Below, piece by piece: positions 12,214-28,258 of a stretch of DNA of 64,000 bases. A model generated the notes under the pieces. That model ran no database searches and was not told the DNA's origin. It saw only the letters and a program-made list of their open reading frames with translations. Origin of the DNA: Candidatus Limnocylindrales bacterium. Its GTDB lineage: Bacteria > Patescibacteriota > Microgenomatia > Levybacterales > UBA12049. The stretch lies in the NCBI GenBank assembly GCA_035526025.1, contig DATLDE010000011.1, positions 49,374 through 113,373 on the forward strand, written 5' to 3'. Positions within the stretch are counted from its first letter, which is position 1. The number at the start of each line of letters is the position of its first letter. Made by a program: the position numbers and the translations under genes.

Positions 12214-12454
12214 ATATGATTAGTATATAACTATATATGCCTAGTTGTCAATCGCCAAATTATTTGCTCTTATTAAGAGCTTTTAAGTGCTTTTACAATG
12301 CTTCTTTTAGGGGTCTTACCCCTCTAATGCAAGGGTAAAATGCACTCCTCATTCTTCGTCGCCCTTGCATTATTCACCCTGCTTATGACTTTCAGTCAGG
12401 TAGTCGGGCATGGGCATGCCCGACAAAAACAATTATGAGAAAGGAGGTGAGAAT

Positions 12455-12837: not shown

Positions 12838-13629
12838 TTATTTTATACTTTCCCAAATACTTCCAGTTACGCCATTTGCTATTACATCCTCAGCTGTTGC
12901 GAACATGATTGATAACTCATCAGTGTTATCTTCCTCAAGTATTCTTTTAGTATAGCGTTTTGCATAAATCATCCTTTCCTTTGTTCCTCCGACAAAAAAT
13001 ATCATGGGAAAAGGTGAATTTATGTGGTTTTCCCACTCATTACTGTAGTAAAAATCTTTGTATGCGCGTATTCGTTTTCGTATTCTGTAATATGGAAGTT
13101 TCTCATCAAAAATAGTCAGTAGGAAGTATTGTATTTTTTTGCCCTTTTCTTTTTTAGAAAAACATATATCAACCGACAGATCAGAGTTTTTTAAAAATTT
13201 AAAGTCACTATCTTCATTACAGATATCGCTTTCGGTTGAATATGTGCGAGTTACGGTATCATTGTTTTTCCTCTCAAGCTCGCAGCAAATTCTAGAGATA
13301 AGTAAACAGTGTTGAATAAAGCTATCAGAGCGGGTCTTATCCCAGTAGAGTTTATGAATAAAATTTGTGTCATATTTTCCTTTTGCTTTTATATATCTTA
13401 TCCCGTTATTATCCAATGTATAGATTGCCGATATTCTGTTTTTCCCAATGATCGTATTGTCATATATTCTTTTGATGTATTTCTTCTCTGTTAGGTCTTT
13501 TAACCAGTTATTTATTCTTGCCTCGTCTTTGTGATTGAGGAGGGATTGGATATGTTGTCTGTTGAGGAATCTGTATCGTGGAATTAGTGTTGTTATTTCT
13601 TGTTGTTTGTTAGTTATGTTAGGTATCAT
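12838..13629 (-). CDS. replication-relaxation (Replic_Relax) family-like protein
   Basis: 263 aa. N-terminal wHTH-like region (LIPRYRFLNRQHIQSLL...WLKDLTEKKYIKRIY). Family call is tentative. Confidence 0.4.
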   Translation of the reverse strand: MIPNITNKQQEITTLIPRYRFLNRQHIQSLLNHKDEARINNWLKDLTEKKYIKRIYDNTIIGKNRISAIYTLDNNGIRYIKAKGKYDTNFIHKLYWDKTRSDSFIQHCLLISRICCELERKNNDTVTRTYSTESDICNEDSDFKFLKNSDLSVDICFSKKEKGKKIQYFLLTIFDEKLPYYRIRKRIRAYKDFYYSNEWENHINSPFPMIFFVGGTKERMIYAKRYTKRILEEDNTDELSIMFATAEDVIANGVTGSIWESIK

Positions 13630-13788: not shown

Positions 13789-16548
13789 TTAAATATATTG
13801 TTGTTTTATAGTTTTTATTCCTTTTTTAACCCCGTTTGTTTTTACTGTGAGCTTACTTGCTTCTAGCAATTGCTTATCTTTTTTTTCAGAGTCTGTTTTC
13901 TTTGTGTTTCCTTTTGTAGGTACTGCTTTGAACAATTTTTCCAGTTGCTTTTCAACATCTGCTTTTGGAGTCGCATAGTGTGCCCTTGAATTCTCAATAA
14001 TCTTTTTTGCTGTTTTGTCACTCCCTTGTTCTGTTACGGGTAACGTAACGCCTGAAAATGCATCTTCTGAATGCTCATTGGTCACTTTCATATAGAAGTG
14101 GTGTGGCGCAAGATTAACTATTGCCCCTTTTTCTACTTCCGGCTCAAGGAAGGGTAGAAGGATTTTTTCATCATCAGGTCCGTTTTTAAGAGCAATTAAG
14201 TTTCCACTATTACTTAAAACTATCTTTGATAATTTTGGATCTTCAATTTGGGCAATATTTTGATGAGACGGCGTGAAGTAAACATGATACTTTCTTGCTT
14301 CTGAAAAAAGATCAGTAAAATGCGCACTTGCAAAGTTTTGAAATTCATCGATATAAACATAGAAATGAGATCTATCTTTTTCCGGTATTGCGGCTCTGGC
14401 ATATACAGCCAGTTGGATAAGGGAAAGTATTAGCGTGCCAAAGAACGCACTCCGCTCTTCTCCAAGCTTCCCTTTTGAGAGATTTACCAGAAGAATTTTA
14501 CCCTTATCCATTATTGCTGAAATGTTAATTGTTGTATTTTTCTGAAGTAAGATATTTCTTGACAATTTATCTGTCATAAATTCACCCAGTTTGTTGGTCA
14601 AGGGGGAGGCAGCATCTGCCTGCTGAATTTTGCCATATGAGCTATACTCTTTTTCCCAGAATTGCTTTAATACAGGATCAGTAAGAGTTTGAGTAACAGT
14701 TCTTCTATAGTCCTTATCAGTTAACAGTTTTTGAATTGCCATTAAAGAAATGTATGGAGTCTCAGGAGTCGGAGTATGTACCTGGAGTGCAGTAAGCGTG
14801 GCATTTCTGAGGATATGCTCCATTTTCTGACCCCAATGCTTCTCTGGTGTTATTTTCATAAATACAGCCATTAATGACCTGGCAATGAAACCATGCTCCT
14901 CATCAATATCTGAGAATTTTATATCTGGGGAGAGTATATTAAGTCCCAATGGAAAATCTTTATCAGAAGGATTAATTAGGACTACATCTTTCAATCTGTG
15001 TTTGGGGATAAGAGTCAGTAAATGCTCAATCAAATCCCCATGAGGATCAAGAATTGCAATCCCTTTCCCATTTTGAATGTCTTGTAGTGCCATACCTTCA
15101 ATAATGGTTGTTTTACCCATACCTGTTTTACCGACAATGTACGTGTGCTCCTTTTTATTCTTATCAGTTAACCCTACTTCAGTTTTTTCTCCACCATAAT
15201 TATTTGTACCAACTACAACGTCAAACTGCGTTGCTGTTTTTTTAAATGAATGAGGAGCAGGTAGTTCCTTACTTTTGCTTTTAACCATATCCTCAGTTTT
15301 GGTTGTTTGAGTGTAAGGCAAGTGATAGATGCTTGAGAGTTCTGTAACTGATAAGAAAATTGTATGGGAAAAAGAAAGGAGCCTGTTACCAAGTTGGTAG
15401 ACAGAAAAGAGTAAAATATATTGTTTTATTCTTTTAGGAATGAATGATGAAAAAACTGTGTGACGCGGAATAATTGCCTGATACTGGGCATTATCAAATG
15501 TTGAAAGTGTTGCCTGGAACCCCCTTATCCTCTCCCTAACAATATTCGAGTTATTTCCAATAACAAGAAGTCGCATGCTTGTTTCAAACACAGGAAGTTG
15601 TAACTTATCCTGTACCTGCTGAAACAATACTTGTTGAGTAGCTGTTGGGGTAAAGACTTTCTTGGGCTTTGCCTCATAATTATTACGTGGAGCTGGTTGG
15701 TTACTGCTACTTCTCAGTGCAATATCAGCAAAAAAACCAATAATTCCAACTAATAACCCAAGAGTCCAATAAATTAATTTACTAATTACATTAATTGGAA
15801 AAACAATGACTGAAAGCAATCTATTCTTTTGAATAATTGGTGAAATATCCTTATTGTGCCAGAGGTGATTTAGTAGCTTATCTGCCTCCTGTGTTTTTGC
15901 CCTATTACTTGCCTTGTCCATAGGAGAAAGGATTAATTGCAGGGAAATAAGCTCCTGTGGTGCAAGCTTTGTCATATTGCCTGTTAGGTATGCAATTGGA
16001 TCATGCTCTCTTAGTTTTGTTTGATCTGTTAGAGGGATAGCGAAGTGGTTTACTAAACGGAATGTTATTAACCGTATAGCTTTACTTGCTGTGAGAAAAT
16101 TTCTTATGCCTTCAAATGATCGCGGAAGATAATCAGCTACCTCCTCTATCTCAACACTTGGTAAGTATGAAAGAAGTGTTTTTCGTATAACTGGGGCATC
16201 AGATTTAGCTGTGTGAATAAGATAACGGATTCCTTCTTCTTTGGTTGCAACAAGCTCAACACTGATTGTTGTTTTGTCATGTATAAATCTTTGCCAGAAT
16301 GTTTTTCCTTTGATTAGCGAATGGAGTTGGGTAAATAACTGCTCTGTAGCATAGGAACTCTGGAGTGTTTGCTTGATTGGTTTAATTGAAAGAACAACAT
16401 GTGGGGTATTGAGTTTCCTTTTTAGCAGTAAATACCTGGAGAGGAGATAAACTATGAGCAAAGTAAATGCTACGCATGAGAGTAATATTAAGTACGCTGG
16501 AAGAACTGCCAGAAATGATATATATTGTGTTGGCATATGCAATATCAA
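13789..16548 (-). CDS. conjugative-transfer-type P-loop ATPase (TraG/TraD/VirD4 coupling-protein-like, or VirB4-like), membrane anchored
   Basis: N-terminal TM helices. Walker A YIVGKTGMGKTTIIEG near residue 480, followed by IAILDPHGDL. Walker B YVYIDEFQNF. Lys-rich C-terminal tail. Confidence 0.6.
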   Translation of the reverse strand: MILHMPTQYISFLAVLPAYLILLSCVAFTLLIVYLLSRYLLLKRKLNTPHVVLSIKPIKQTLQSSYATEQLFTQLHSLIKGKTFWQRFIHDKTTISVELVATKEEGIRYLIHTAKSDAPVIRKTLLSYLPSVEIEEVADYLPRSFEGIRNFLTASKAIRLITFRLVNHFAIPLTDQTKLREHDPIAYLTGNMTKLAPQELISLQLILSPMDKASNRAKTQEADKLLNHLWHNKDISPIIQKNRLLSVIVFPINVISKLIYWTLGLLVGIIGFFADIALRSSSNQPAPRNNYEAKPKKVFTPTATQQVLFQQVQDKLQLPVFETSMRLLVIGNNSNIVRERIRGFQATLSTFDNAQYQAIIPRHTVFSSFIPKRIKQYILLFSVYQLGNRLLSFSHTIFLSVTELSSIYHLPYTQTTKTEDMVKSKSKELPAPHSFKKTATQFDVVVGTNNYGGEKTEVGLTDKNKKEHTYIVGKTGMGKTTIIEGMALQDIQNGKGIAILDPHGDLIEHLLTLIPKHRLKDVVLINPSDKDFPLGLNILSPDIKFSDIDEEHGFIARSLMAVFMKITPEKHWGQKMEHILRNATLTALQVHTPTPETPYISLMAIQKLLTDKDYRRTVTQTLTDPVLKQFWEKEYSSYGKIQQADAASPLTNKLGEFMTDKLSRNILLQKNTTINISAIMDKGKILLVNLSKGKLGEERSAFFGTLILSLIQLAVYARAAIPEKDRSHFYVYIDEFQNFASAHFTDLFSEARKYHVYFTPSHQNIAQIEDPKLSKIVLSNSGNLIALKNGPDDEKILLPFLEPEVEKGAIVNLAPHHFYMKVTNEHSEDAFSGVTLPVTEQGSDKTAKKIIENSRAHYATPKADVEKQLEKLFKAVPTKGNTKKTDSEKKDKQLLEASKLTVKTNGVKKGIKTIKQQYI

Positions 16549-16719: not shown

Positions 16720-17655
16720 TTAAGCAGCAATCTTGTCATAGTAAAATAACTTTCCTCTTACGTCGTCAAAGCAGCGTTTCGAAGTTAGAGCTGATGGTAT
16801 ACCATTTGCATGCCCAGCTTGTTGATAAGCTTGCCATTCTTCAGGATCAAATCTGTCAACATATTCACTGGCATCTCTAGCAATAAAATAAACTGGTATC
16901 CCCGCAGCTAAAGCTGTAGTTCCTTTTAAAAATTCACGCCTATCCTTTAATGGTTCTTCTTTCTTGTTTATATAAGACACTGCAGCAATTTCAGCTGCTG
17001 CAGCTGCTGCTACGTATGGAGCTGTAGCTAAAGTTAATTTTTTCATACCGTATAATGCGGTTACAGCATTTCTAGTGTTTTCACCTCGTCTCCCACCTTG
17101 CACTACGTGATATAGCTCATGAAAAACTACTCCATTTAGTGCAGAATTCCAATGCGGAAGAATGTCTGGGGCTATTTCTAAAACTATTGGATCTTCAGGA
17201 TACATAGGGTGACGTACTGTGCCTGAAAATCCGCTATGTCCATCTCCGTTACCCCTATCTTCTTTACGCATTTGATTTATTTCTAGTCCGTATTTTTTAA
17301 CGTATGCAGATACTCTGTCTACCTCAGAGACTCCTCCGTCAAGATAGGATAAGTAAGTTAGGGCACGAGACATAGTATCCAAATTGACTGCGGGTTGGCT
17401 TGGACTTCCATCTGATCCTCCACCTATTACTATAACAGTGTCAAACTTTCCAGCTTTCATGTATTTTTTTATTTCCTCTGCCTTGGGCTTTAGAAGTTCA
17501 GCAGTTTGTGGAGATATATCATAATCAGGACCAAATGTTCGGTTTTCATAGGCTTTACTTCCCAGGACCCCCCCCAATACAGTAGCAACTCCCGCTTTTG
17601 CACCTAAACGTAAGAATCTTCTTCTGCCTATGCTTACAGGATCTCTTTCCGCCAT
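16720..17655 (-). CDS. Tat-signal secreted protein with HExxH zinc-peptidase-like motif
   Basis: N-terminal RRRFLRLGAKAGVATVLGG. FHELYHV is an HExxH motif. A second internal Tat-like motif, DRREFLKGTTALAAGIP, is also present. Confidence 0.45.
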   Translation of the reverse strand: MAERDPVSIGRRRFLRLGAKAGVATVLGGVLGSKAYENRTFGPDYDISPQTAELLKPKAEEIKKYMKAGKFDTVIVIGGGSDGSPSQPAVNLDTMSRALTYLSYLDGGVSEVDRVSAYVKKYGLEINQMRKEDRGNGDGHSGFSGTVRHPMYPEDPIVLEIAPDILPHWNSALNGVVFHELYHVVQGGRRGENTRNAVTALYGMKKLTLATAPYVAAAAAAEIAAVSYINKKEEPLKDRREFLKGTTALAAGIPVYFIARDASEYVDRFDPEEWQAYQQAGHANGIPSALTSKRCFDDVRGKLFYYDKIAA

Positions 17656-17870
17656 AATGCGGATTATATACCGTTCTAGGATAAATTTCTACACTATTTT
17701 GAGCAGGTTAATTCCCCACTAGAGAAAAAATATATCTAAGTCCATTTCTACAAAACTTAAAAATTTTTACATTAAACACTGTCATATTCAAAAATACATG
17801 AAAAAGTAAATAATTTTATTTTCCTATAGTACTTGTTTTTGCCATTTCAGGCTGCTAAAATAGGCAAATC

Positions 17871-18767
17871 ATGATGCAAGCCGAAAGAAGACCGAGCCGA
17901 TATGAGTTTGGTGATCTAAATAGAAGTCTTTTAAAGGATCTTCGCATTGTCCATTTGCCAGAAACCACCAGCACAATGGATTTAGTTGATGGATTAGCCA
18001 GATCATGGGCAAAAACAAAACGCGAATTCATACCCCCAGTTGTAATAATTGCGGATCATCAAACTGCAGGAATCGGCAGAGGAGATTTGGGAGAAGAAAA
18101 AAAGTGGCATGACATACCCGAGCTATCTATGCTTTTTAGCATTTTTATTCCAAAAGACAGAATAGAAGAAGAAAATCTACCCGAGTTATCAGATTTGGTT
18201 GCATTAAGAACATGCATGGCACTTAGAAAAGCAGGAGGAAATTTTCTTATAAAAGCCCCCAATGACATTGTTGACGCAGATACTGGTAAAAAGGTTAGCG
18301 GACTTCTTGTTAGATCGATTTATTCAGATGAAGGAGAATATTTGGGAGCAAATGTTGGAGTAGGTACAAATGTTCATTATAGAGATAATCAATTAGCTAA
18401 TTTTCCTGTGGAACCTGAATATGGAGCAATCTCAGTAGATAGCGCAACTGGTCAATTCAATAGTAGACAAGATTTATTGGTTGATATCTTAACTGGTATT
18501 TCCACAGTTGTTCCGGAAGCCGCCACTATCAATAAGGGAAGTGTTCATAACCCAACATCTGTTCATGCTATACAAAATGCCGAATGGAGAAGGCATTCAT
18601 ATTTACTAAATGAAAGGGTAGTAGTTAGAGAAGGTGAACAAGTCGTAGCCGAGGGAACAGTTGTTGACACAGAAATTGGTAACGGATTTATATTGAGATC
18701 AAATGATGGAATTGAGCATGCGGTACCGGTTTTTGGAACAGATACGAAGGTGAGGTTAGCTTCATGA
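17871..18767 (+). CDS. biotin--protein ligase (BirA-like; BPL catalytic domain + BPL_C-like C-terminus), paralog 1
   Basis: TSTMDLV...VVIIADHQTAGIGRGDLGEEKKWHD is a divergent BirA GRGRxGRxW block. The C-terminus VVVREGEQVVAEGTVVDTEIGNGFILRSNDGIEHAVPVFGTD is SH3-like as in BirA. Confidence 0.6.
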   Translation: MMQAERRPSRYEFGDLNRSLLKDLRIVHLPETTSTMDLVDGLARSWAKTKREFIPPVVIIADHQTAGIGRGDLGEEKKWHDIPELSMLFSIFIPKDRIEEENLPELSDLVALRTCMALRKAGGNFLIKAPNDIVDADTGKKVSGLLVRSIYSDEGEYLGANVGVGTNVHYRDNQLANFPVEPEYGAISVDSATGQFNSRQDLLVDILTGISTVVPEAATINKGSVHNPTSVHAIQNAEWRRHSYLLNERVVVREGEQVVAEGTVVDTEIGNGFILRSNDGIEHAVPVFGTDTKVRLAS

Positions 18768-19186
18768 TTGGTGAAGGATTTAGGAGATTACCCAGACCCG
18801 AAGGAGATGGCCATCCAACTAGAGAAGTACGGGGAAATGTTACTAGAAGTATCGAGCGTTTAAGGCCAGATTCCATAGCAGTTGAGTTAGTGCCACCTCA
18901 TGAGCTTATGCCATTTATTCTTCCTCCAAGTGCCGAAGGGGTAGTGCAAGCAATAGCGGCATTCGCAATCAGTGGAGAAACCCGTACTGCAGTTTGCGAA
19001 TTTGAAGATCGCAGAAACGATACGGTAACAAGAATTACTCTTGAAAATCCAACTGGTGATCCTTTCAACATGAGAATTACCCTTTCCAGTCCAGACAGAG
19101 AAGAAGGAGAAAAAGTACCACCCGGTATTGGCATTAAGGTTGTTGATAAAGAAGGAGCAACTCAAAAAGAGTTAGATAAAAAGTAA
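18764..19186 (+). CDS. hypothetical protein
   Basis: 140-aa ORF overlapping the ligase stop. No recognisable motif. Confidence 0.35.
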   Translation: MIGEGFRRLPRPEGDGHPTREVRGNVTRSIERLRPDSIAVELVPPHELMPFILPPSAEGVVQAIAAFAISGETRTAVCEFEDRRNDTVTRITLENPTGDPFNMRITLSSPDREEGEKVPPGIGIKVVDKEGATQKELDKK

Positions 19187-19263
19187 GACTTTGGAGACGG
19201 CTGAATCCTCGAGAAGATCCTCTTATTCAAGTTGGACAGACAGTTGAGCCTGGAGCTACTCTT

Positions 19264-19446
19264 ATGCTTGCAACAAGAGGCAAAAGTATCAAAAGAAGAA
19301 TAAAACTTCCAAGAGATAAATTTCCCAAGGGAGGTAAAGTTACTGCTATTTACGTTGACCCAGAGGACAACAATGAAGAACTCCGAAAAAAGGGTAAATT
19401 AGTTAATGGTGAATTTGTTCTTGCAGTTATAGATCCAGTTAAATAG
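19264..19446 (+). CDS. small ORF of uncertain status (possible fragment)
   Basis: 60-aa ORF. The frame is open about 78 nt upstream of the ATG without another start codon. KGGKVTAIYVD is KOW/hybrid-barrel-like. Confidence 0.25.
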   Translation: MLATRGKSIKRRIKLPRDKFPKGGKVTAIYVDPEDNNEELRKKGKLVNGEFVLAVIDPVK

Positions 19447-19449
19447 CCT

Positions 19450-22400
19450 ATGCCTGTATCCGTTAAAGAAAGATCAAGAACTCCAGAAGAAGGTGTCCGT
19501 CCGATTCGTAAAATGTTTATTGCAAACCGCGGTGAAATTGCTGTGCGTGCTGCAAAGGCATGTGAGAGAAGAGGGATTGCTGCTGTAATCCCATATTCTG
19601 ATCTTGAGTCCGAAAGAAATTCTTACGCAACTCGTTTTGTGGATAAGAACGCTAACAAAGGCTGGGAATTAGCAGCTATAGAGGGATATAGTGGCGACGA
19701 AACGTATGGAGATCCTAACGCAATACTACAAGAAGCAATTATACATAATTGTGACGCTATTTTTCTTGGATATGGATTTTTAGCAGAAAACGCTGATTTT
19801 GTTAAGCAAGTTGAGGATCATAATGAGGCAAGAAGAAGCCGAGGGGATGAACCTATTCGTTTACTTGCTCCTGATTCACGTGCCATGAGGCTTTTGGGAA
19901 ATAAAGCAAATGCTCGGGAGTTTGTAAACACTGTTAAAGTTGGCCTTGGAAGAAACAGAAGAACAGTGCCCATTGTTGAAGGATCTGATAAGCCTCGAAC
20001 CCAAATTGAAGAACTAATAAGGGATGTTGAGGGGGACGGAAAGAGCAAAGAAGGTATTGGATATCCTGTTATGGTAAAAGCTCCTGATGGAGGTGGTGGA
20101 ATGGGTAATATTGTAGCACGTACTCATGCTGAGCTTGATGCAGCATATAGGGATCTTCGCGGAACAGGAGAAGATCAAGGATTAATTGTTGAGCACTATA
20201 TAGAAAACGCAATTCATGTTGAGATGCAAGTTATTGCTGATCAACACGGTAACGTTGTGATTTTGGGTGAGCGTGATTGCACTCTTCAGAGAAGAAGTCA
20301 AAAACTGGTTGAAGAGTCCCCATCTCCACATATAAATGAACGGCAAAGGAAGAAAATAACTGAAGAATCTGCTGCAATTGTAAAAAAAGCAAAATATTCA
20401 GGACCGGTAACAATTGAAATGATCTTTGATAAAGACAGAGTTGATGAAGACGGGGATATGTGGCATGGTTTCATGGAAGCAAATACACGCTTGCAGGTAG
20501 AGCATGTTGTAACTGAAATTCAGACAGGAATAGATATTGTTGACACAATGATAGATGTTGCAGAAGGTCGTGAGTTAAAATTTAAACAAAAAGACATTAA
20601 GCCTCAAGGACATACTATGGAGCTTCGTGTTTACGCAGAAGATCCTGACCGTAATTTTGAACAACAAGAAGGAATTTTAAATGTATTAAGTCTTCCTGAA
20701 GATGTGGAGGGAGTAAGGATTGATAAAGGATATGAAGAAGGTGATGAAGTATCAGTAGAATACGACGGAACGATATTTAAAATAAATATACATGGCGTAA
20801 CAAGAGCTGACATGCTTGAGCGGACAAGTCAAGTAATTGCAATGTGTGAAATTGCTGGAGTTAAAAATAATCTTGCCTTTCTTGATGAGCTTATTAATAC
20901 ACCAGAATTTCAACGAGGAACAGTGAAAACGAAATTTGTCGAGGAATGGGTAGACCGTAGGCGAAAAGAGGCAAGAGACCAAATAATGAATGAGTTATTG
21001 GGCGAAAATGGAACATTTACTCCATTTCCCCCATCAAAACTTCGTGATAATTTTCCTGTAAATCCAACTTTTAAAACTTCTAACTCTGCTGAATCCACAA
21101 CGCTAGAGGAAAGCCTTGCGCGACAGAAAGAAAAAACAGGATTAGAAAGAGCGTCAGAATATGGAATTGTTGAAAGAGATGGAGTTAGGTACGTATTATA
21201 TCTATTAAATTCCAAATTTAATGCAGGAACATTTGGAAAAGAAGAAGGGTGGATGTTGACCGATGCAATTAAACTTGCACATAAGTACAATCTCCCATTA
21301 ATAACAGATACTTCAACAGCGGGTGTCAGAAACACTGAAGGATCATACGGAATAGATATGATGATGAACTCTACCAGCGATCTAAGTGAATATCCTCCAC
21401 TTTTTCATATTGACATACGGCATGGATACGTATTGGGTGGAGTTCCAGCCTCATATTCTGGAAGAGCCAATTTGTTTATGGCGGTTAATGATGACGCTAC
21501 CAAAATAGGAATAACTGGAGCAAATGCATTGGCTGCTGGAGAGGATTTGCATCCTACTGACTTAGAAGGTAAGTCAAGCACAAAAGCTGCTGACGCATAT
21601 AGAGCATTGAATGAAAACCAAGAAGACGAAGGCGCTCCAGTGCATACTCCCACCCGTCATCACGAGGAAAGAACTGGTGCTGATATGCTGCCAGCAAGTT
21701 TAACAGAAGCTGGGGCAAAGATTAGCCATATATTACAAATTCTAAAATTCACTCATCCCCACATCAGATCAGATCTAGATACACATGTCTTTAGTCCACA
21801 TGAGCAAATAGGATACGGACATATGCCTCACGCTGTTACTCTTTACGATTCAGGTGAACAACGACCCGGTTTTGTGCCCCCAACAATCAGCCGATTATGG
21901 GAAAGGTTTGCGAGTAATAGAGGAAAAGAAAAAATTATTTTTGCACCTGAAACTCCAGAAATCACAATCGGAGAGAGAAGAAGAATAGTAAAGCACCCCG
22001 ATAGACCTACAGGTCTTGACCTTGTTGATACTGGTTCCGAACTTTTTGATGATGCTGTATTTCTTGATCATGTAACTTTTGTCGATAATGTACACCAAGT
22101 TCTTCCCATTACCTCGGCCTTAGTTCGCTTTGGTGATCACCCAATTTTAGTGGTTACTCAAAATCGTCAAGAGAGAATCAATGACGCTGGAGAAAGAGAA
22201 ATATATTACAAACCAATTCGTCCTACTGATTGGGAAGCCACAAAACGTCATCTTCAATGGGCAGAAAATGTAGGTATCACAGTTATGCTAATGGGCGACA
22301 CTTCAGGAGCAGATTCAAGTAGGCAGGCTGAAGACCGGGGACAAGAAATTAAGCTCGCCGAAATATCGCAATTTGTTCAACAGCTAAAAGTGCCAGTAAT

Positions 22401-22875
22401 TACTAATCAATCTGGACTAGGGGGAAGTGGTAGTGTTCTTCCCTTTAGTTGGTATGGAGATTATGCAGCCATGTGGGAGAATGCCACAAGGTGGCCAGCC
22501 GATGCCCCAGCAATGAGAAGCTTTATTGAAGGAGTCTCTCTTCTTAAAGAATCAGACGCAACAGCAGAGGAGATAGCAGCACTTGATTTATTTGCAGCTC
22601 AATTTATCGATGTTACTGCTGAAGCGCATCTAGCAAAAGGTAGGATTGATAAAATACTTCTAGAAGGACCCGGAGGTGCGCATATAAACCCAAGAATAAT
22701 TGTTGATAGTAACAGGGAGATGTTGAGAGACGTGTTACCAAAATTACGACAAAGATATCTTGACGGCACTTTACTTGAAGAAAGAAGGAGAAGAAAAGAG
22801 CATGTTGCATTGATTGGCTCCAGACCAAATCCAGACTATGCAGCACAAGTTGCTGAATTAGAAGAAAGACTTTAA
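19450..22875 (+). CDS. biotin carboxylase - carboxyltransferase fusion protein (acyl-CoA carboxylase-like BC + PccB/AccD-like CT), no BCCP domain
   Basis: BC motifs MFIANRGEIAVRAAKACERRGI, GYPVMVKAPDGGGGMGNIVA, ERDCTLQRRSQKLVEESPSP, FMEANTRLQVEHVVTE. First CT subdomain PLITDTSTAGVRNTEG...GGVPASYSG. Second CT subdomain VPVITNQSGLGGSGSV. No (A/V)MKM biotinyl motif anywhere in the 1141 aa. Confidence 0.7.
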   Translation: MPVSVKERSRTPEEGVRPIRKMFIANRGEIAVRAAKACERRGIAAVIPYSDLESERNSYATRFVDKNANKGWELAAIEGYSGDETYGDPNAILQEAIIHNCDAIFLGYGFLAENADFVKQVEDHNEARRSRGDEPIRLLAPDSRAMRLLGNKANAREFVNTVKVGLGRNRRTVPIVEGSDKPRTQIEELIRDVEGDGKSKEGIGYPVMVKAPDGGGGMGNIVARTHAELDAAYRDLRGTGEDQGLIVEHYIENAIHVEMQVIADQHGNVVILGERDCTLQRRSQKLVEESPSPHINERQRKKITEESAAIVKKAKYSGPVTIEMIFDKDRVDEDGDMWHGFMEANTRLQVEHVVTEIQTGIDIVDTMIDVAEGRELKFKQKDIKPQGHTMELRVYAEDPDRNFEQQEGILNVLSLPEDVEGVRIDKGYEEGDEVSVEYDGTIFKINIHGVTRADMLERTSQVIAMCEIAGVKNNLAFLDELINTPEFQRGTVKTKFVEEWVDRRRKEARDQIMNELLGENGTFTPFPPSKLRDNFPVNPTFKTSNSAESTTLEESLARQKEKTGLERASEYGIVERDGVRYVLYLLNSKFNAGTFGKEEGWMLTDAIKLAHKYNLPLITDTSTAGVRNTEGSYGIDMMMNSTSDLSEYPPLFHIDIRHGYVLGGVPASYSGRANLFMAVNDDATKIGITGANALAAGEDLHPTDLEGKSSTKAADAYRALNENQEDEGAPVHTPTRHHEERTGADMLPASLTEAGAKISHILQILKFTHPHIRSDLDTHVFSPHEQIGYGHMPHAVTLYDSGEQRPGFVPPTISRLWERFASNRGKEKIIFAPETPEITIGERRRIVKHPDRPTGLDLVDTGSELFDDAVFLDHVTFVDNVHQVLPITSALVRFGDHPILVVTQNRQERINDAGEREIYYKPIRPTDWEATKRHLQWAENVGITVMLMGDTSGADSSRQAEDRGQEIKLAEISQFVQQLKVPVITNQSGLGGSGSVLPFSWYGDYAAMWENATRWPADAPAMRSFIEGVSLLKESDATAEEIAALDLFAAQFIDVTAEAHLAKGRIDKILLEGPGGAHINPRIIVDSNREMLRDVLPKLRQRYLDGTLLEERRRRKEHVALIGSRPNPDYAAQVAELEERL

Positions 22876-22877
22876 AT

Positions 22878-23726
22878 ATGAAAACAGAAGCTGCAATTAG
22901 TGTTCGACCTTATACCGAATATGATCAGAATAGAGTCAGATCTGCAGTGGGAGCATTGGGATACGATTTTCAATACCGTCAGATCACTGGAACCACCATG
23001 GATGATGCTCTGTCTTCGGAAAGACCTACTGTTTGGGTTGCTGATAGTCAAAGAAATGGCCGAGGAAGAACAGGAAATAGATGGGAAGACACATCAAAAG
23101 CAAATGTTCTGGTAACAGTTGCCGTCGACCGGATAAAACTTTCAAATCCTTTACTGCTTCCTCAGCTTGGTGCATTGGCTGCCTGCAGGGCTGCCAGAAC
23201 AGTTACAAAAAGTGATGCTCCTCAGATACGTTGGCCCTATGACCTAGAAATTGATGGTAAAAAGTTCGGGGGAGTATTGGTCGAACAAAAGGTTTCTGCA
23301 ACCGGAAAACCGTTAACCTTAATTGGCGTTGGAATGGATGTACATGATCAGTCTTTTCCTCAATTTCCTTGGGAAGCAGTAGCTCTTGAACAAGTACAAG
23401 GCATTGAATCAATAGATAGGAACGCACTATTAATTGAATTTACAAAAGAGTTAACTAGCCTGCTAGATATAATCGATATTGTTGATACTGATCCGCAAGC
23501 ATACGCAACATGGAACAACATTTGGATAGCTCATCAAAGCTTAGGAGGAAAACATGTTATAGCAGAGAATATCGGTCCAGATAAATTTGGGGACGTGGAG
23601 GGAATTGCAAGGGTACCTATGCTAGGAAGAGGGCTTGATTTAGTCACAACAGGTTTCGATGGATTGGAAAAAACTGTTACGGTTTCAAGCTGGAATCCCC
23701 TCTCTTTAATTAGAAACTTGGAATAA
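22878..23726 (+). CDS. biotin--protein ligase (BirA-like), paralog 2
   Basis: QRNGRGRTGNRWEDTSKANVLVTVAV matches the BirA signature GRGRxGRxW..G.xL. It has a C-terminal SH3-like domain. Its start lies 3 nt after the BC-CT stop. Confidence 0.65.
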   Translation: MKTEAAISVRPYTEYDQNRVRSAVGALGYDFQYRQITGTTMDDALSSERPTVWVADSQRNGRGRTGNRWEDTSKANVLVTVAVDRIKLSNPLLLPQLGALAACRAARTVTKSDAPQIRWPYDLEIDGKKFGGVLVEQKVSATGKPLTLIGVGMDVHDQSFPQFPWEAVALEQVQGIESIDRNALLIEFTKELTSLLDIIDIVDTDPQAYATWNNIWIAHQSLGGKHVIAENIGPDKFGDVEGIARVPMLGRGLDLVTTGFDGLEKTVTVSSWNPLSLIRNLE

Positions 23727-23730
23727 AAAT

Positions 23731-24360
23731 ATGCCAGTTGAACAAGCAAGGAACGTTTTCGTACTCGACATCGGTCAAGTCCTTGCCGACGGTGGACGGG
23801 AATATTTCACAAGAAGAAAAGGACAATTTAGTTTTAGAGATAGAGCCTCTCTTGCTATTGTTTATGATGATTTTGTTCCCCTACCAGGTTCGATAGAGGG
23901 AGTAGGTGCGCTTTCCAAAGTTGCTACATTTGGCGGATATTATACGGTAAGACCTCCAGAGTTAAAACAACAAGGAACCAACTGGTTGACCCGTTATAAT
24001 TTCCCTGATGCAGAAAATATCCATACCTGTGTAAATCACGAAGATAAAGTAAGACAAATTATCAATGATTTACTCTTGAATGAAGATGGCCAAAATAACA
24101 GAAGCGTTGTACTGATTGATGATAACTTGGACCCTTTACTATCCGCAGCTGAAAAACTGGTAGACCAAGACCCCCCCCTCAAGCAAGCAACTGAAAAATT
24201 AATTCTTGTAGGATTTGGAAAAAAACATCAAGATATGCCTCAAGGAGGAGTACATCTTGCAACAGGCATTAGAACATTCTCGCTTTCTTCCTGGGAAAAC
24301 CAGAATAGAGATGATCTTATTGGAGACTTGCAAATGTTATATCAGAGCCATTCAGGTTGA
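23731..24360 (+). CDS. hypothetical protein (degenerate HAD-like motifs)
   Basis: VFVLDIGQVL and VVLIDDNLDPL resemble HAD motifs I and IV, but motif I lacks the second Asp. Confidence 0.35.
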   Translation: MPVEQARNVFVLDIGQVLADGGREYFTRRKGQFSFRDRASLAIVYDDFVPLPGSIEGVGALSKVATFGGYYTVRPPELKQQGTNWLTRYNFPDAENIHTCVNHEDKVRQIINDLLLNEDGQNNRSVVLIDDNLDPLLSAAEKLVDQDPPLKQATEKLILVGFGKKHQDMPQGGVHLATGIRTFSLSSWENQNRDDLIGDLQMLYQSHSG

Positions 24361-24418
24361 TATGGCAATAAATTTACATTTGCAGTAATAATTAAGACTA
24401 TGTTATAATGCAAATCTT

Positions 24419-24781
24419 ATGGGAGCTCCACAAGAAAGAAATTGCGAAGCGCTGATTACTTACACTACGGTTAGGAGAGGTCAAGCAAGGTATGAAATTC
24501 TTAAACCACCTGAGGGCATGGAATTAAATTCTACAGGAATGGTTGCGAACAGAGAAGTAATTAGTGGCATAGAAGAGGTTTGCATAAATTGTGGGAGATG
24601 TGGAATTGATAATGTAAAGCGCAGGTCATCAGATAATAAACATCCATGGTCTGCTGCTGTTGGCGCAGAAAGACTAGCGGCCCAAGTACTTGAAGACCAA
24701 TGTCAGCCTTTTCAACCCCTGAAGGAATTGGGATTAAAGCCAAATAAAGATTTCCATCCAATGCTTACTCATATAAAATAG
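24419..24781 (+). CDS. hypothetical protein with CxxCxxC cluster
   Basis: 120 aa. CINCGRCG. Confidence 0.3.
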   Translation: MGAPQERNCEALITYTTVRRGQARYEILKPPEGMELNSTGMVANREVISGIEEVCINCGRCGIDNVKRRSSDNKHPWSAAVGAERLAAQVLEDQCQPFQPLKELGLKPNKDFHPMLTHIK

Positions 24782-24834
24782 GCCTACCGCGCGGTTATTT
24801 GAAGTCTTAGGGTTTGACATTTTATATTAAAAAT

Positions 24835-25548
24835 TTAATTTGTGGGCATTATCAAATCTCTTTCCATATCTATATTATCCAATAACAAATTCAACTCCAA
24901 TAATCTTACTCTACTTTCTTCAACTTCTTTAGGAGTCCTACTTCTTAATGGACCCAATATGAGTTCATCCCAGTGCTTGTATATGGCTGCATTTATTTGA
25001 GCGTTGATTAATTCGTCATCTAAAAATCCCGCAGCTGATCTTGGATCCTCATCTGAATCATTGGATCCAACAACTAACGGACGTGGTTCATCGGTAGCAG
25101 CCATTACTAAATCAGTACTTGGTCTCTCAGGATATTCAATATCATAATCTCTTTCGTAATCTTGCGCTCCTTCCGGCAAAAAAAGTGTTTTTTGTTTCCC
25201 GTCGCCAAACCAAATAAATCTCTTGCCTGCACCACCTCTGATATATTTATCGTCTACAAATGGGTCAGGAATTACAGGGGTAAAAACAATGTGCCCGTCA
25301 TATAAGCTTGGCCCCACAGGCTCATTGCAAACTGCAGATACGACAACCCCCCCCTCAGTATTTCTATAAAGAGAGATTCGCTCTTTAGATACGTGCGAAG
25401 GAATTGCGAGTCCGTTCGGATCTATTACAAAAGTGAATCCGCTCCGCTTTGCAAGCCTGCTTAAACGAGTTGTTGTTTGTTTTGCAAGTTCTTGTTCCGG
25501 AATTGGTACAGCAGCTTCATGTCTTTGCATGGGGCGATTATAGCACAA
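24835..25548 (-). CDS. hypothetical protein
   Basis: 237-aa ORF. Acidic. No motif recognised. Confidence 0.4.
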   Translation of the reverse strand: MCYNRPMQRHEAAVPIPEQELAKQTTTRLSRLAKRSGFTFVIDPNGLAIPSHVSKERISLYRNTEGGVVVSAVCNEPVGPSLYDGHIVFTPVIPDPFVDDKYIRGGAGKRFIWFGDGKQKTLFLPEGAQDYERDYDIEYPERPSTDLVMAATDEPRPLVVGSNDSDEDPRSAAGFLDDELINAQINAAIYKHWDELILGPLRSRTPKEVEESRVRLLELNLLLDNIDMERDLIMPTN

Positions 25549-25623: not shown

Positions 25624-25827
25624 ATGGGAGCCAAACAACTAGGAAAAAATGTTAAGAAAGCCAGGGAAAAAGCAGGTTTGACCCAAGAGGAGCTTGCCGA
25701 AAAAATAGGCTTGCATGCTAGTTCTATTTCCCGCATTGAAAGAGGTGCTGCCAACCCTACGCATTCTATTTTGGATAATATCCGTAAACTCTTGAAAATG
25801 GATCCTTCGGAAATATTCCCCAACTAA
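25624..25827 (+). CDS. XRE-family HTH transcriptional regulator
   Basis: KAREKAGLTQEELAEKIGLHASSISRIERG is a canonical Cro/C1-type HTH. Confidence 0.75.
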   Translation: MGAKQLGKNVKKAREKAGLTQEELAEKIGLHASSISRIERGAANPTHSILDNIRKLLKMDPSEIFPN

Positions 25828-25830
25828 TAT

Positions 25831-26148: not shown

Positions 26149-26186
26149 CTTCTATTTTCACACTATTATTCGGGCCCGAACGTAAG

Positions 26187-27212
26187 CTATTTATTATCTT
26201 CTTCCCGCAATACTTTTTTTATCTCTTCAATTGTTAAACGTTTTTCAAGTTGCAATTGCCGAATACGCTTGACTACATCAATCGCTGAATGCTCATACAA
26301 TTGGTATCCACTTGGAGTATGATCTTTTGCGTTTAGTAATCCCTCTTTGGTCCAGAAGCGTAATGTGTGAATTGTCTCTCCTGTTTTCTTGGCAAGGCTT
26401 CCTATTTTTAAAAGTTCTTCTTGTGGTTGAGTCTCAAACTCTTTAAATACGGCGTTCTTTTTACTAAGTGCGTTTAGGTATATATCAAGTGATCTTTCAA
26501 CAGAGGTAAAGATAATTGTATAAAAGGGCTGCATGTCTTTTTTATTTTGTGCTGATTCAAATGAGTTAAGATATGCAGTTCTTTCTTCATTTCGTATAAT
26601 ACCCATTGGGTACCCATTCAGCAAAAGAATTAAGTTCATTAATAGTCTAGTTGTACGCCCATTTCCGTCAATAAATGGATGAATACTGACAAACTTCATA
26701 TGAGCATCCGCTGCGATTTTAACAGGATGATCATCTTGTTGTGCCTGAAGCCAACTGATGAAATTGCGCATTTCGATATGTAGAGAATTGGGCATGGGAA
26801 ATTCTGCATTTGAGCCACGAATAAAAACCTCAGTCAACCTGTATTTACCTGCCCAGTTATCGTCAATACCGGTCAAAATAATTTTATGAATGTCCAAGAT
26901 GTCTTTTTCAGTAATAAATTGATGGCTTTTTCGTGTCCGCGCTAACTGATTTATGAAATCAAGCGCTTTTGCGTGATTAATTGCTTCTATTTGATCTTTT
27001 AGAGGTTTACCATTTATAACAGCTGTTATGCCCCTCTCGATCACCTCTGCAGTTTCAATACGTGTTAAGGTGTTGCCTTCAATAGCGTTTGAGGAATATG
27101 TAAGCTCAACTTTTAGCCATTCTTCAATATTCTTTCGTAATTCCGGGGGAATTGGCTGATGAGAGTCCAGCTGCTTTTTTTTCTTAGTTAGCCTTAGAAG
27201 TAGATTATCCAT
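26187..27212 (-). CDS. Fic/DOC family protein fused to a C-terminal MerR-type HTH
   Basis: HPFIDGNGRTTRLLMNLILL is the Fic motif. An AIEGN inhibitory motif is present. The C-terminus LLKIGSLAKKTGETIHTLRFWTKEGLL is MerR-like HTH. Confidence 0.75.
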   Translation of the reverse strand: MDNLLLRLTKKKKQLDSHQPIPPELRKNIEEWLKVELTYSSNAIEGNTLTRIETAEVIERGITAVINGKPLKDQIEAINHAKALDFINQLARTRKSHQFITEKDILDIHKIILTGIDDNWAGKYRLTEVFIRGSNAEFPMPNSLHIEMRNFISWLQAQQDDHPVKIAADAHMKFVSIHPFIDGNGRTTRLLMNLILLLNGYPMGIIRNEERTAYLNSFESAQNKKDMQPFYTIIFTSVERSLDIYLNALSKKNAVFKEFETQPQEELLKIGSLAKKTGETIHTLRFWTKEGLLNAKDHTPSGYQLYEHSAIDVVKRIRQLQLEKRLTIEEIKKVLREEDNK

Positions 27213-28124: not shown

Positions 28125-28258
28125 CATAATCAGCTCACTTTTCCGGCTCTTCCGCTGCTTGATAAGCCTCCATCAAACTGCTAAAATGGACTATGAACTG
28201 GAGGAAAAGCGGTTCAAAATAAATACTATCCTCCGCACACCAGCGGAAAAATATAAAT

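Follow-up and report, generated by a model that had tools for sequence, protein, structure and literature searches.

The components of prokaryotic acetyl-CoA carboxylase are 'partially fused in different combinations', one example being the enzyme of Chloroflexus aurantiacus, in which biotin carboxylase (BC) and the biotinyl carrier (BCCP) are fused and the carboxyltransferase (CT) is separate (PMC11077971). In the locus described here, located in a window of 64,000 nucleotides, the fusion joins BC to CT and leaves BCCP free; the C. aurantiacus paper does not use the term 'BC-CT' (PMC11077971). From the cultured patescibacterium Minisyncoccus archaeiphilus a partial fatty-acid-synthesis gene set has been reported in which 'AccC' accompanies FabK, FabG and a FabA-like protein and its role 'remains unclear' (PMC12281837). 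By reported gene content this set can be likened to the chromosomal context of two loci considered below, L001 and L088, whereas the operon in the window has no adjoining Fab genes and lies on an apparent mobile element.

The heteromeric acetyl-CoA carboxylase (AccC, AccB, AccD, AccA) with BirA shares with this locus an ATP-grasp BC, two CT halves, a biotinyl carrier and a ligase; chromosomal copies of the module adjoin FabH, FabD, KAS and FabA-like (SDR-FabA) genes. The differences are that BC, CTbeta and CTalpha form one polypeptide of about 1100 aa with a free-standing BCCP, that no (A/V)MKM motif is present in the carrier, whose invariant Lys lies in a GK instead of an MKM hairpin, and that a dedicated divergent ligase is always encoded upstream, in this lineage with a second, canonical ligase downstream.

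Among mobile elements, the closest counterparts are the serine-recombinase IME/ICE, with a large serine recombinase, a relaxase-like protein, a VirD4/TraG-type ATPase, toxin-antitoxin and Fic accessory genes, site-specific insertion, a short flanking repeat and cargo exchangeable among related elements. What sets the present element apart is its Patescibacteria host, a relaxase-like protein belonging to the little-studied Replic_Relax type, and targeting of tRNA-Leu 3' ends, in two isoacceptor genes in two genomes. Insertion in tRNA 3' ends is more typical of tyrosine integrases. Classical genomic islands also combine a contiguous block of deviant GC with an adjacent tRNA gene and mobility genes; here, however, synonymous sites do not deviate, and homologues in unrelated low-GC genomes reproduce the deviation of the block. 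The compositional criterion gave the right answer, a mobile element, for the wrong reason. It seems likely that the block at 16720–25548 is element cargo of mosaic ancestry whose composition is a trait of the encoded protein families, and not an import from a recent GC-rich donor.

The integrative element and its insertion site

The element, of ~17.9 kb (window ~10312–28240), is located in the 3' end of tRNA-Leu(UAG) (10229..10311, + strand; ARAGORN, Rfam tRNA 56.8 bits, alignment of occupied and empty sites), just upstream of tig, and starts directly after ...CGTCCGCAC of the tRNA gene. Sequence and alignment place the left direct repeat CCGCACAC at 10306..10313, within the 12-mer TCGTCCGCACAC (10302–10313), and the right one at 28233..28240, within TCCTCCGCACAC (28229–28240), 18 nt before the tig ATG at 28259; the two 12-mers are identical at 11 of 12 positions. 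In the related genome L007, which has the tRNA-Leu array in common with the window, tRNA-Leu(UAG) lies 12 nt from tig and represents an empty site, and a related element with different cargo is present at another tRNA-Leu. The occupied and empty tRNA-Leu sites align identically through CGTCCGCAC, and both elements begin AC(A/G)ACAGTACAGT, with TCCTCCGCACAC repeated at the right end of that in the window. Because the two genes are adjacent in L007 and a repeat is found to the right of the block, everything between tRNA-Leu(UAG) and tig must be inserted DNA.

The left end encodes a large serine recombinase (10312..11827, − strand; Resolvase, Recombinase and Zn_ribbon_recom domains), 83% identical at the nucleotide level to that of the L007 element and clustering at ≥90% with P0130; its mechanical ORF extends to 10106, antisense across the tRNA. 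It is accompanied by a conserved backbone protein of 129 aa (11824..12213, −), with no Pfam match, and a DUF2958 backbone protein (12410..12790, +; PF11171, E=3e-12), both 77% identical to their L007 counterparts, followed by a replication-relaxation (relaxase-like) protein (12838..13629, −; PF13814, E=7e-8) and a VirD4/TraG-like coupling ATPase, T4CP (13789..16548, −; TrwB_AAD_bind, DUF87/HerA and TraG-D_C, and NCBIfam conjugative coupling-protein models). The backbone homology to L007 (83% nt) ends at ~16629, upstream of the T4CP gene. The other end carries an Xre-type HTH regulator (25624..25827, +; PF01381, E=7e-16), a Fic/DOC-MerR fusion protein (26187..27212, −; Pfam), and a RelB antitoxin (27573–27845) followed by a YafQ/ParE-type toxin (27846–28124), both on the + strand, assigned by Pfam and called identically in a parallel assembly. 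The element was found to contain no T4SS genes, VirB4 included. In an independent Logan assembly the same gene order is seen from the 5' end of the T4CP gene through tig. The element is integrative and probably mobilizable, and may still be mobile at present.

Cargo genes and their ancestry

The first cargo gene encodes p311 (16720..17655, −), a membrane-associated protein with RRxFL and a HExxH motif (HELYHVxQxAR), belonging to a rare family of 28 cluster representatives; it has no match in Pfam, NCBIfam, PADLOC or PHROG and no meaningful one in PDB. It is followed by BPL1 (17871..18767, +; PF03099, E=9e-9), a module-specific divergent biotin-protein-ligase-like protein whose biotin loop is degenerate in the motif alignment (GIGRGDLGEEKKW), and whose orthologues lie upstream of every BC-CT gene examined. 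The middle gene (18764..19446, +; full-length alignment with six orthologues) is predicted to encode an atypical BCCP, of 227 aa when joined, and carries a −1 frameshift in the A-run 19178–19182 (GAT AAA AAG TAA), which breaks its reading frame. The prediction is based on gene context and on a profile match to the biotinyl domain of E. coli BCCP (E=2e-3), with the Lys aligned to the biotinyl-Lys; the putatively biotinylated residue is K174 (codon 19282–19284). The BC-CT fusion of 1141 aa (19450..22875, +; Pfam, NCBIfam) is composed of biotin carboxylase and AccD-like and AccA-like carboxyltransferase halves (BC-CTbeta-CTalpha), without a BCCP domain. It retains all of the >130 family-invariant residues and has about 38 full-length homologues, those with names coming from Levybacteria or 'Patescibacteria group'. 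BPL2 (22878..23726, +; PF03099, E=3e-13) is a canonical class-I biotin protein ligase with GRGRTGNRW and KKFGGVLVE motifs, matching BirA-type ligases in PDB (E~1e-9). The twin-arginine/HExxH protein, the two BPL-like ligases and the BC-CT fusion had all been correctly recognized in an earlier note on this DNA.

Three orphan genes complete the cargo, and homologues of none of them were detected: p209 (23731..24360, +; AF2 model too poor for use, pLDDT 38), with no match in Pfam, NCBIfam, PADLOC, PHROGs, PDB, viral contigs or JGI metagenomes; p120 (24419..24781, +), with no family match (including Pfam and NCBIfam) and a CxxCxxC cluster (CINCGRCG) in its translation; and p237 (24835..25548, −), with no hits in family and database searches (including Pfam and NCBIfam). 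We infer that the cargo constitutes a self-contained biotin-dependent carboxylase operon of the acetyl-CoA-carboxylase type, with predicted activity and acetyl-CoA as the presumed substrate. This uncharacterised mobile carboxylase kit holds more interest than the compositional finding, which is itself ordinary.

Judging by sequence, the host genome belongs to the Patescibacteria (CPR), despite the MAG label 'Limnocylindrales'; the named ThrRS relatives at 70–76% identity are all Patescibacteria. The island BC-CT is 50–57% identical to the homologues P0002–P0006 versus only 35–37% to the host-lineage chromosomal copy, represented by L088, the same-genome copy being located outside the window. 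For BPL2, the chromosomal paralogue P0253, located on the same contig, shows 74% identity and the L088 counterpart 55%. These identities mark the three-gene core as a xenologue that came from another, partly MGE-associated, clade of the family within Patescibacteria, and BPL2 as a derivative of the four-gene module on the chromosome of the host lineage. In the reading that we favour, an integrative element entered the tRNA-Leu(UAG) 3' end, just before tig, and brought the block as cargo. One of its ends is formed by the serine recombinase, the relaxase-like protein and the VirD4-like ATPase, the other by the HTH, Fic-MerR and RelB/YafQ genes, and between them lie BPL1, the frameshifted BCCP, BC-CT, BPL2 and four orphan genes, one with RRxFL/HExxH. 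The core came from another Patescibacteria clade and BPL2 was recruited from the host chromosomal module. The odd composition, as a property of the families, is uninformative on a recent GC-rich donor.

Composition of the block and its interpretation

In the GC profile of the 64-kb window, the block at 16720–25548 has the highest GC of all 8829-nt windows, 0.4027, which is 3.5 points above background (z~5; non-overlapping windows: mean 0.368, sd 0.007, maximum 0.380), so the GC-richer DNA seen by eye in the earlier note is confirmed. The same is true of its Arg/Ala/Gly/Asp/Glu-rich proteins: in all eight island ORFs Arg/(Arg+Lys) is 0.50–0.70 (background mean 0.335; Mann-Whitney against the other genes, p=6e-5) and GARP 0.24–0.34 (background 0.215; p=1e-4), with pooled island/background ratios of 1.71 for Arg, 1.36 for Asp, 1.29 for Gly, 1.25 for Pro, 1.24 for Glu, 1.22 for Ala, 1.20 for Val and 0.57 for Lys. 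The observed deviation was reached by none of 2000 random gene sets, and since only 8 of 52 genes outside the island have R/(R+K) ≥ 0.5, the probability of a run of eight consecutive such genes is ~3e-7. Host-like composition returns from the Xre-type HTH gene (25624) onward.

This anomaly is real but purely amino-acid-level, confined to codon positions 1 and 2. The GC1/GC2/GC3 values are.555/.408/.261 in the island versus.472/.363/.281 elsewhere in the window, the entire GC excess falling in the first two positions; the Mann-Whitney test gives p=7.5e-5 for GC, 7e-5 for GC1 and 0.015 for GC2, and no significant difference for GC3 (p=0.53). Four-fold GC is.219 versus.260, with four-fold base usage almost equal to that of the host, AGA accounts for 53% of Arg codons versus 47% in the remaining genes, and the RSCU distance reveals a slight synonymous codon-usage difference (p~0.002) shifted towards more AT. 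Synonymous sites of the island are host-like or more AT-rich. In tetranucleotide usage the island deviates more than any other part of the window (r 0.906–0.924), but barely more than the initial 5 kb and the pilin genes' region. Of the compositional measures suggested with the original observation, GC and tetranucleotides deviate and GC3 does not.

For comparison, eight other low-GC Patescibacteria loci were used, L001–L006 and L088 with the module and L089 with a p311 homologue. At all seven module loci the BPL-BCCP-BC-CT genes have higher GARP (by.008 to.092) and higher R/(R+K) (by.05 to.22) than the genes around them, and at five of the seven their GC3 is lower; the p311 homologue shows the same behaviour. 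In L002 and L006 the module occupies a syntenic chromosomal site adjoining secE-nusG-rplK-rplA, and all relatives that could be identified for the island proteins lie in low-GC (34–43%) Patescibacteria-type contexts. Because these families show the same amino-acid offset, with GC3 unchanged, at the eight comparison loci as well, a 'recent, higher-GC donor' is unsupported, and the Arg/Gly/Ala-rich, Lys-poor composition appears to be a standing trait of the encoded families and not the mark of a recent GC-rich import. This signature reflects functional constraint, very ancient heritage, or both, the data not separating constraint from slow amino-acid amelioration.

A recent acquisition from a higher-GC donor, with the raised GC as its unameliorated signature, would account for the excess of 3.5 points (z~5), the enrichment in amino acids with GC-rich codons and the position on a mobile element, yet it must be considered very improbable. 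Synonymous sites would be expected to retain donor GC, so their host-like or more AT-rich state, with GC3, GC3s and four-fold GC equal to or below the host's and Arg mainly AGA-encoded as in the host, argues against it; all relatives found lie in 34–43% GC contexts, the nearest, at only 50–57% identity, do not allow for a recent donor, and the closest relative of BPL2 is in the same genome. Neither 'comparatively recent' nor 'higher-GC donor' in the earlier note withstands these results, and best-hit taxonomy, also proposed there, points to Patescibacteria for the named BC-CT relatives; the note's further suggestion, that the block was acquired laterally, possibly with the neighbouring mobile element as its carrier, was borne out by the ~17.9-kb element enclosing the block and the empty site in L007. 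An ancient transfer from a GC-richer lineage, by which the set of carboxylase and lipid genes reached Patescibacteria, or this sub-lineage, long ago and only constrained amino-acid positions kept the GARP-rich, Arg-over-Lys usage of the donor while synonymous sites equilibrated fully, is unlikely but deserves serious consideration. In the Lawrence-Ochman amelioration model third positions ameliorate fastest, the offset is common to every family member examined and to the neighbouring FabD in L088 (GARP.278, R/(R+K).54, GC3.274), and R/(R+K) ranges from.35 to.71 across BC-CT homologues, as if at different stages of drift. On the other hand, the donor lineage is not identifiable, and the best BC matches outside the family are generic MCC/PCC alpha subunits at 36–39% identity. 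Host housekeeping enzymes conserved to a similar degree, ThrRS and IlvA among them, are rich in Lys; amino-acid composition can therefore drift strongly in this genome, and a lasting offset also fits functional constraint.

It is highly improbable that the block is native chromosome, with the composition of a specialised operon and the element inserted beside it. The lineage does have a native chromosomal version of the operon, and the accessory genes lack MGE-typical annotation; however, tRNA-Leu(UAG) and tig are adjacent in L007, the tRNA 3'-end repeat lies to the right of the block, Fic and RelB/YafQ, 18 nt from tig, and the core is a xenologue of the host-lineage module. A chimeric contig of two organisms, arising in assembly or binning, is scarcely credible: the MAG label is inconsistent with the sequence and the Logan contig begins inside the T4CP gene (~16398), but it crosses the backbone-cargo junction (16.4–16.7 kb) and extends over all of the block and into tig, the junctions show no break in GC3 or four-fold base usage, and the BPL2 paralogue is on the same contig.

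The proteins p209, p120 and p237 share the island composition without a family explanation. The small proteins at 29856–30700 and 37129–37536, said to look similar to those of the block, resemble it in composition only; in sequence they are similar neither to one another nor to island proteins, and L007 has no counterpart of them.

Composition of the block by codon position

The block at 16720-25548 has a GC content of 40.3%, the maximum among all 8.8-kb windows of the stretch, whose overall GC is 37.3%; the windows that do not overlap the block have a mean of 0.368, a standard deviation of 0.007, and a maximum of 0.380, which places the block at z~5. All eight proteins encoded by its ORFs have an Arg/(Arg+Lys) ratio of 0.50-0.70 and a combined Gly, Ala, Arg, and Pro fraction (GARP) of 0.24-0.34, against a background mean of 0.335 and a background value of 0.215, respectively. 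When the block proteins are pooled, Arg is raised 1.71-fold and Lys reduced to 0.57-fold, while Asp, Gly, Pro, Glu, Ala, and Val are 20-36% higher; in 2000 random draws of equally many genes, these deviations were never reached. An Arg/(Arg+Lys) ratio of at least 0.5 is found in only eight of the 52 other genes, so that the chance of eight consecutive ones is about 3e-7. The impression of a GC-richer stretch coding for Arg/Ala/Gly/Val-rich proteins, recorded in an earlier note made by eye, is thus well founded.

That note had also read the composition as a sign of comparatively recent acquisition from a higher-GC donor. In the amelioration model, a gene recently arrived from a GC-richer genome is expected to carry the donor signature most strongly at synonymous sites. 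The sliding-window GC, codon, and tetranucleotide checks proposed in the note reveal a deviation of bulk GC and amino-acid usage but not of GC3: GC at the first, second, and third codon positions (GC1, GC2, and GC3) is 0.555, 0.408, and 0.261 in the block versus 0.472, 0.363, and 0.281 in the other genes (Mann-Whitney p = 7e-5, 0.015, and 0.53). Synonymous third positions have a GC of 0.239 in the block and 0.261 in the other genes, and four-fold sites 0.219 and 0.260, with four-fold A/T/G/C frequencies of.40/.38/.09/.13 in the block and.39/.35/.12/.14 in the host; AGA accounts for 53% of the Arg codons in the block and 47% elsewhere. The synonymous-codon distance of the block is slightly raised (p~0.002); a handful of idiosyncratic preferences, CAA over CAG for instance, account for this, and its direction is towards AT, not GC. 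The tetranucleotide deviation of the block is the largest in the window, yet barely above those seen at the pilin genes and over the initial 5 kb. Because the excess lies at GC1 and GC2 while the synonymous sites are host-like or AT-shifted, amino-acid usage accounts for the whole anomaly, and the expected mark of a recent GC-rich donor is missing.

An integrative element at a tRNA-Leu array

The block is, by the alignments described below, the cargo section of an integrative element of 17.9 kb that spans about 10312-28240, between tRNA-Leu(UAG) and tig. A large serine recombinase gene (10312-11827) forms its left end, and the part to the left of the block also encodes a VirD4/TraG-like coupling ATPase (T4CP; TrwB_AAD_bind and TraG-D_C; 13789-16548), a Replic_Relax protein (E=7e-8), a DUF2958 protein, and a conserved 129-aa protein; to the right of the block there are genes for an Xre-type HTH protein, a Fic-MerR fusion, and RelB/YafQ. 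A direct repeat, CCGCACAC, is present at 10306-13 and 28233-40, within a surrounding 12-mer that is identical at 11 of 12 positions.

The limits of the element and the cargo status of the block follow from the alignment of occupied and empty sites and from the repeat of the tRNA 3' end before tig. The related genome L007, which comes from a different sample and whose housekeeping genes are 68-74% identical to those of the window at the nucleotide level, shares with it the array tRNA-Leu(GAG) - tRNA-Leu(CAG) - two genes - tRNA-Leu(UAG) - tig - DUF5660 - ilvA. Its tRNA-Leu(UAG) site is empty, the tRNA gene lying 12 nt from tig, and a related element abuts tRNA-Leu(GAG) instead. The occupied and empty sites, tRNA-Leu(GAG) among them, are identical through ...CGTCCGCAC, and both elements start with AC(A/G)ACAGTACAGT. 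In the window, the right end of the element reads ...ACTATCCTCCGCACAC, with the boundary before CAGCGG, 18 nt ahead of the tig ATG, and duplicates the tRNA 3' end at 11 of 12 positions. The two elements are 83% identical at the nucleotide level over the segment from the recombinase to the DUF2958 gene, but their cargo past the T4CP gene differs: homology to the window ends at about 16629, and the L007 element continues with genes for a transglutaminase-core protein and an AAA_5 protein. The suggestion that the block is cargo of the adjacent mobile element is therefore upheld by the flanking repeat, the empty site in L007, and the recombinase/relaxase/T4CP backbone.

Since no ORF for a type IV secretion (VirB4-type mating-pore) component is present within 10.3-28.2 kb, the element is predicted to be mobilizable (IME) and not self-transmissible or conjugative. 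An independent Logan assembly has the same gene order from the 5' end of the T4CP gene through the block into tig, which argues against chimerism. Long repeats inside the element, direct or inverted, were looked for and gave chance-level matches only, and neither promoters nor terminators were predicted more often than expected from shuffled sequence. What is documented here is a serine-recombinase element with exchangeable cargo that targets tRNA-Leu 3' ends in Patescibacteria (CPR).

The array itself, three tRNA-Leu genes (GAG, CAG, and UAG) at 6286-10311 in the window and at 11517-13824 in L007, is conserved, and appears to act as an integration hotspot, related elements using different tRNA-Leu genes in the two genomes. 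The first two tRNA genes are separated by a Fic-wHTH gene (7392-8426) in the window and by a 23S_rRNA_IVP/bAvd-like gene in L007. Between tRNA-Leu(CAG) and tRNA-Leu(UAG) lie two paralogous endolysin/glucosaminidase-like genes (8810-9376 and 9552-10100; 32% identical), which are conserved in L007 and hence assigned to the chromosome, outside the element. The frame of the serine recombinase continues antisense through tRNA-Leu(UAG) into the chromosome (10106-10311), giving 573 aa versus 511 aa in L007, so that its C-terminus and stop codon would depend on the integration site.

Cargo genes and the carboxylase module

The earlier descriptions of the block genes as coding for an HExxH protein, two BirA-like ligases, a biotin carboxylase-carboxyltransferase (BC-CT) fusion, and hypothetical proteins agree with the domain and motif evidence. 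The first gene, on the reverse strand (16720-17655), encodes p311, which is 311 aa long and carries HELYH and, at the N-terminus, an RRRFL motif. Among 1.84 billion proteins its family counts no more than 28 cluster representatives, and the family is characterized by a second, internal RRxFL-plus-hydrophobic segment and by conserved LSYLDGG, HELYHVxQxAR, and PxExQAY motifs; p311 resembles a polytopic membrane metallohydrolase more than a simple Tat-exported protein. The three hypothetical proteins p209 (23731-24360), p120 (24419-24781), and p237 (24835-25548, reverse strand) have no family match and no detectable homologues across the resources queried. Viral contigs contained no matches to p237 or p209, metagenomes none to p209 or p311, and a PDB sequence search with p209, p311, and p237 returned nothing meaningful, the sole p311 match being a spurious antibody; a single-sequence AF2 model of p209 (pLDDT 38) was discarded. 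A defence-system or phage reading of the block finds no support: ten island proteins matched no PADLOC defence-system model at E<=0.01, and PHROGs gave no match for the island proteins.

Central to the cargo is an operon of four genes for a first, divergent biotin-protein-ligase-like protein (BPL1; 17871-18767), a BCCP-like protein (the 'middle' gene; 18764-19446), the BC-CT fusion (19450-22875), and a second ligase (BPL2; 22878-23726). The fusion, of 1141 aa, joins a biotin carboxylase to AccD-like and AccA-like carboxyltransferase halves and has no BCCP domain. Its BC part matches Biotin_carb_N, CPSase_L_D2 (1e-47), and Biotin_carb_C, with catalytic-motif columns invariant across the family, and its carboxyltransferase part matches ACCA PF03255 (6e-21), accD TIGR00515 (4e-6), and AccA models (1e-19 to 1e-20); the window protein keeps all family-invariant residues. 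Only about 38 full-length homologues (37-57% identity) were found among 5.8 billion clustered proteins, and those with names are Levybacteria or 'Patescibacteria group'. A profile search with the BC-CT alignment, through universal biotin-carboxylase motifs, reached at least 80 generic BC loci from many phyla, with no member of the fusion family among the matches listed. In all eight loci examined (L001-L006, L088, and L090) the BC-CT gene is preceded by an orthologue of BPL1 and by a 182-232-aa protein without a Pfam match.

A profile of seven such middle-gene proteins matches the biotinyl domain of E. coli BCCP (1bdo, 2bdo, 3bdo, 1a6x, 8uxz, and 4hr7) at E~2e-3, and in this match K174, the sole invariant Lys of the family, aligns to the biotinylated Lys. 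The canonical (A/V)MKM motif is absent from the family, the invariant Lys being part of a conserved GK hairpin that lacks flanking Met residues. A single-sequence AF2 model of the C-domain has a pLDDT of 56, and Foldseek gave nothing significant with it, 1bdo ranking 17. As for the ligases, BPL2 carries GRGRTGNRW and KKFGGVLVE, is matched by BirA-type ligases of the PDB at about 1e-9, and belongs by its motifs to class I of BirA (GRGRxGRxW biotin loop, KxGGxL catalytic Lys). BPL1 retains the catalytic Lys (GKKVSGLLV), and its biotin loop is degenerate (GIGRGDLGEEKKW). The two are not recent duplicates, since there is no mutual tblastn match at E<=1e-3.

The middle gene of the window is split into ORFs of 140 and 60 aa, and GAT AAA AAG TAA read one base back at the A-run 19178-19182 (A5) restores a 227-aa protein. 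The joined BCCP aligns end to end with its orthologues, the junction ...KKVRLWRRLNP... corresponding to ...LRLFRRLNP...; all seven orthologues are single uninterrupted ORFs. A real inactivating mutation is plausible, and the presence of a redundant chromosomal copy of the module speaks in its favour. The break could also be a homopolymer assembly error; the second (Logan) assembly calls the same two ORFs, possibly from the same reads. A programmed -1 ribosomal frameshift of the dnaX/IS type was also considered: set against the slippery heptamer X XXY YYZ, U AAA AAG (with UAA next) fits in its A-site half (A AAG) and is imperfect in its P-site half. That reading is less likely and was rejected as the default, because the 79 nt after the site fold worse than shuffles (z=+1.6), with no stimulatory structure, and because the orthologues are unbroken.

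The operon is best described as a putative self-contained enzyme of the acetyl-CoA-carboxylase (ACC) type with its own carrier and ligases, a reading based on its domain content and on the Fab-gene neighbours of the chromosomal copies: FabH, SDR-FabA, FabD, and ketoacyl-synthase genes in L001, and FabD in L088. From the carboxyltransferase type and these neighbours, and solely from them, we infer acetyl-CoA as the substrate. In three loci a PAP2 lipid-phosphatase gene lies divergently upstream of the module (L002:7746-8411, L003:7722-8264, and L006:7865-8593), which may hint at a lipid-related role.

Ancestry of the cargo and of its composition

The record is labelled at NCBI as 'Candidatus Limnocylindrales bacterium' (Chloroflexota; HUQ853xx, locus tags VM077_035xx). 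At 37% GC, the contig bears genes for CPR-typical proteins (DUF5660 and a short trigger factor), and every named relative of its ThrRS at 70-76% identity comes from Patescibacteria; the record is probably mislabelled or misbinned. Host and island families thus draw on one phylum-level gene pool.

The genuine relatives of BPL2 number only two, a 74%-identical paralogue about 70 genes upstream on the same 212-kb contig, outside the window, and a 55% homologue in L088. Both end a chromosomal four-gene module, BPL - BCCP - BC-CT - BPL2, adjoining a DsbA-like gene, so the two-ligase architecture is native to the host lineage. The chromosomal copy of the same genome (around VM077_03185-03205; compare L088:5242-10876) is highly divergent, with a BC-CT of 1116 aa; one reduced CPR genome thus holds two divergent biotin carboxylase kits. 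The island BPL1, BCCP, and BC-CT are 31%, 27%, and 35% identical to those of the L088 chromosomal module versus 45-57% to a distinct clade (P0002-P0006), whose member L003 also adjoins a serine recombinase and phage-like genes. The island core is accordingly not a duplicate of the chromosomal module (35-37% identity versus 50-57% to the other clade). The cargo is thus a mosaic: its three-gene core is xenologous and stems from a different clade of Patescibacteria, whereas BPL2 was taken up from the host's own lineage. Genes have accordingly moved laterally among low-GC Patescibacteria, and the picture is not one of import from a GC-rich source. No close relative (>=57% identity) was found. The best relatives of the block proteins are 41-57% identical, reside in contexts of 34-43% GC, and, where named, are Patescibacteria, which again fails to identify the GC-rich donor proposed earlier.

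The composition was compared between the module and its neighbouring genes in seven loci with backgrounds of 34-41% GC (L001-L006 and L088), among them L002 and L006, at a syntenic chromosomal site beside secE-nusG-rplK-rplA, and L088, the native chromosomal module of the host lineage. The module exceeds its neighbours in all seven, by +0.008 to +0.092 in GARP and by +0.05 to +0.22 in Arg/(Arg+Lys). Its GC3 is below that of the neighbours in five of the seven, by up to -0.07, despite higher GC1 and GC2, which may reflect compensation or expression-linked codon choice. The nearest p311 homologue (41% identical, on a 38% GC contig) has a GARP of.29 and an Arg/(Arg+Lys) of.50 versus.20-.23 and.20-.38 in its neighbours, with similar GC3. 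The signature of the block accompanies its protein families wherever they are present in low-GC genomes, and therefore it cannot date or source the present acquisition. For p209, p120, and p237 the block-like composition has no family-level explanation. The earlier note was half right: the block is mobile-element cargo, and its acquisition is neither dated as recent nor traced to a GC-richer donor.

The family-wide composition could stem from an ancient transfer followed by slow amino-acid amelioration, which seems unlikely, or, alternatively, from functional constraint. A joint reading, doubtful as a whole, would have an integrative mobilizable element spread a complete non-canonical ACC kit (its own ligases, GK-type BCCP, and BC-CT) among Patescibacteria, with BPL1 as the dedicated ligase of the carrier and the composition as an amino-acid 'fossil' of an ancient import of lipid genes into CPR. 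To our knowledge, Patescibacteria are generally held unable to make fatty acids. Were the joint reading true, an element xenologue beside a divergent chromosomal copy would mean that additional or distinct carboxylase capacity (malonyl-CoA supply or another acyl-CoA) is selected for. Should the module be active, it would bear on how CPR bacteria obtain lipids.

Prokaryotic ACC components are described as 'partially fused in different combinations', and a BC-BCCP fusion was reported as new in 2024 (PMC11077971), a paper that makes no mention of a BC-CT fusion. In Minisyncoccus, a cultured Patescibacterium, an 'AccC' is reported beside FabK, FabG, and a FabA-like protein, genes whose role 'remains unclear' (PMC12281837). 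No description of a module of BC-CT, GK-type BCCP, and dedicated ligase, or of its carriage by a mobile element, was found in the literature. The Patescibacteria-restricted architecture documented here (BC-CTbeta-CTalpha fusion, free GK-type BCCP, and dedicated ligase(s)), chromosomal beside Fab genes as well as on mobile elements, is a modestly novel, partly mobile variant of a known enzyme class. The compositional finding itself is ordinary and instructive, as a cautionary case for genome scanning: a strong GC and amino-acid outlier is truly located on a mobile element, and its composition is silent on recency or donor. Such a question is settled in minutes once GC is computed separately for each codon position and homologues are looked up in other hosts.

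It is also worth mentioning that the window contains another amino-acid-driven compositional outlier, the pilin-like gene run at 54687-58665, with very high GC2 (0.46-0.56), low GC1 and GC3, and a tetranucleotide r of 0.923, comparable to that of the block. The small proteins at 29856-30700 and 37129-37536, which had been noted as similar to those of the block, do resemble them in composition but show no sequence relationship to them and are missing from L007. The former comprise a pair of Arg-rich orphan ORFs, of 125 and 135 aa, between DUF5660 and ilvA; the counterpart interval in L007 (15380-16337) has only ~350 nt and two tiny ORFs, and the pair may be a small lineage-specific insertion or ORFs that arose de novo.
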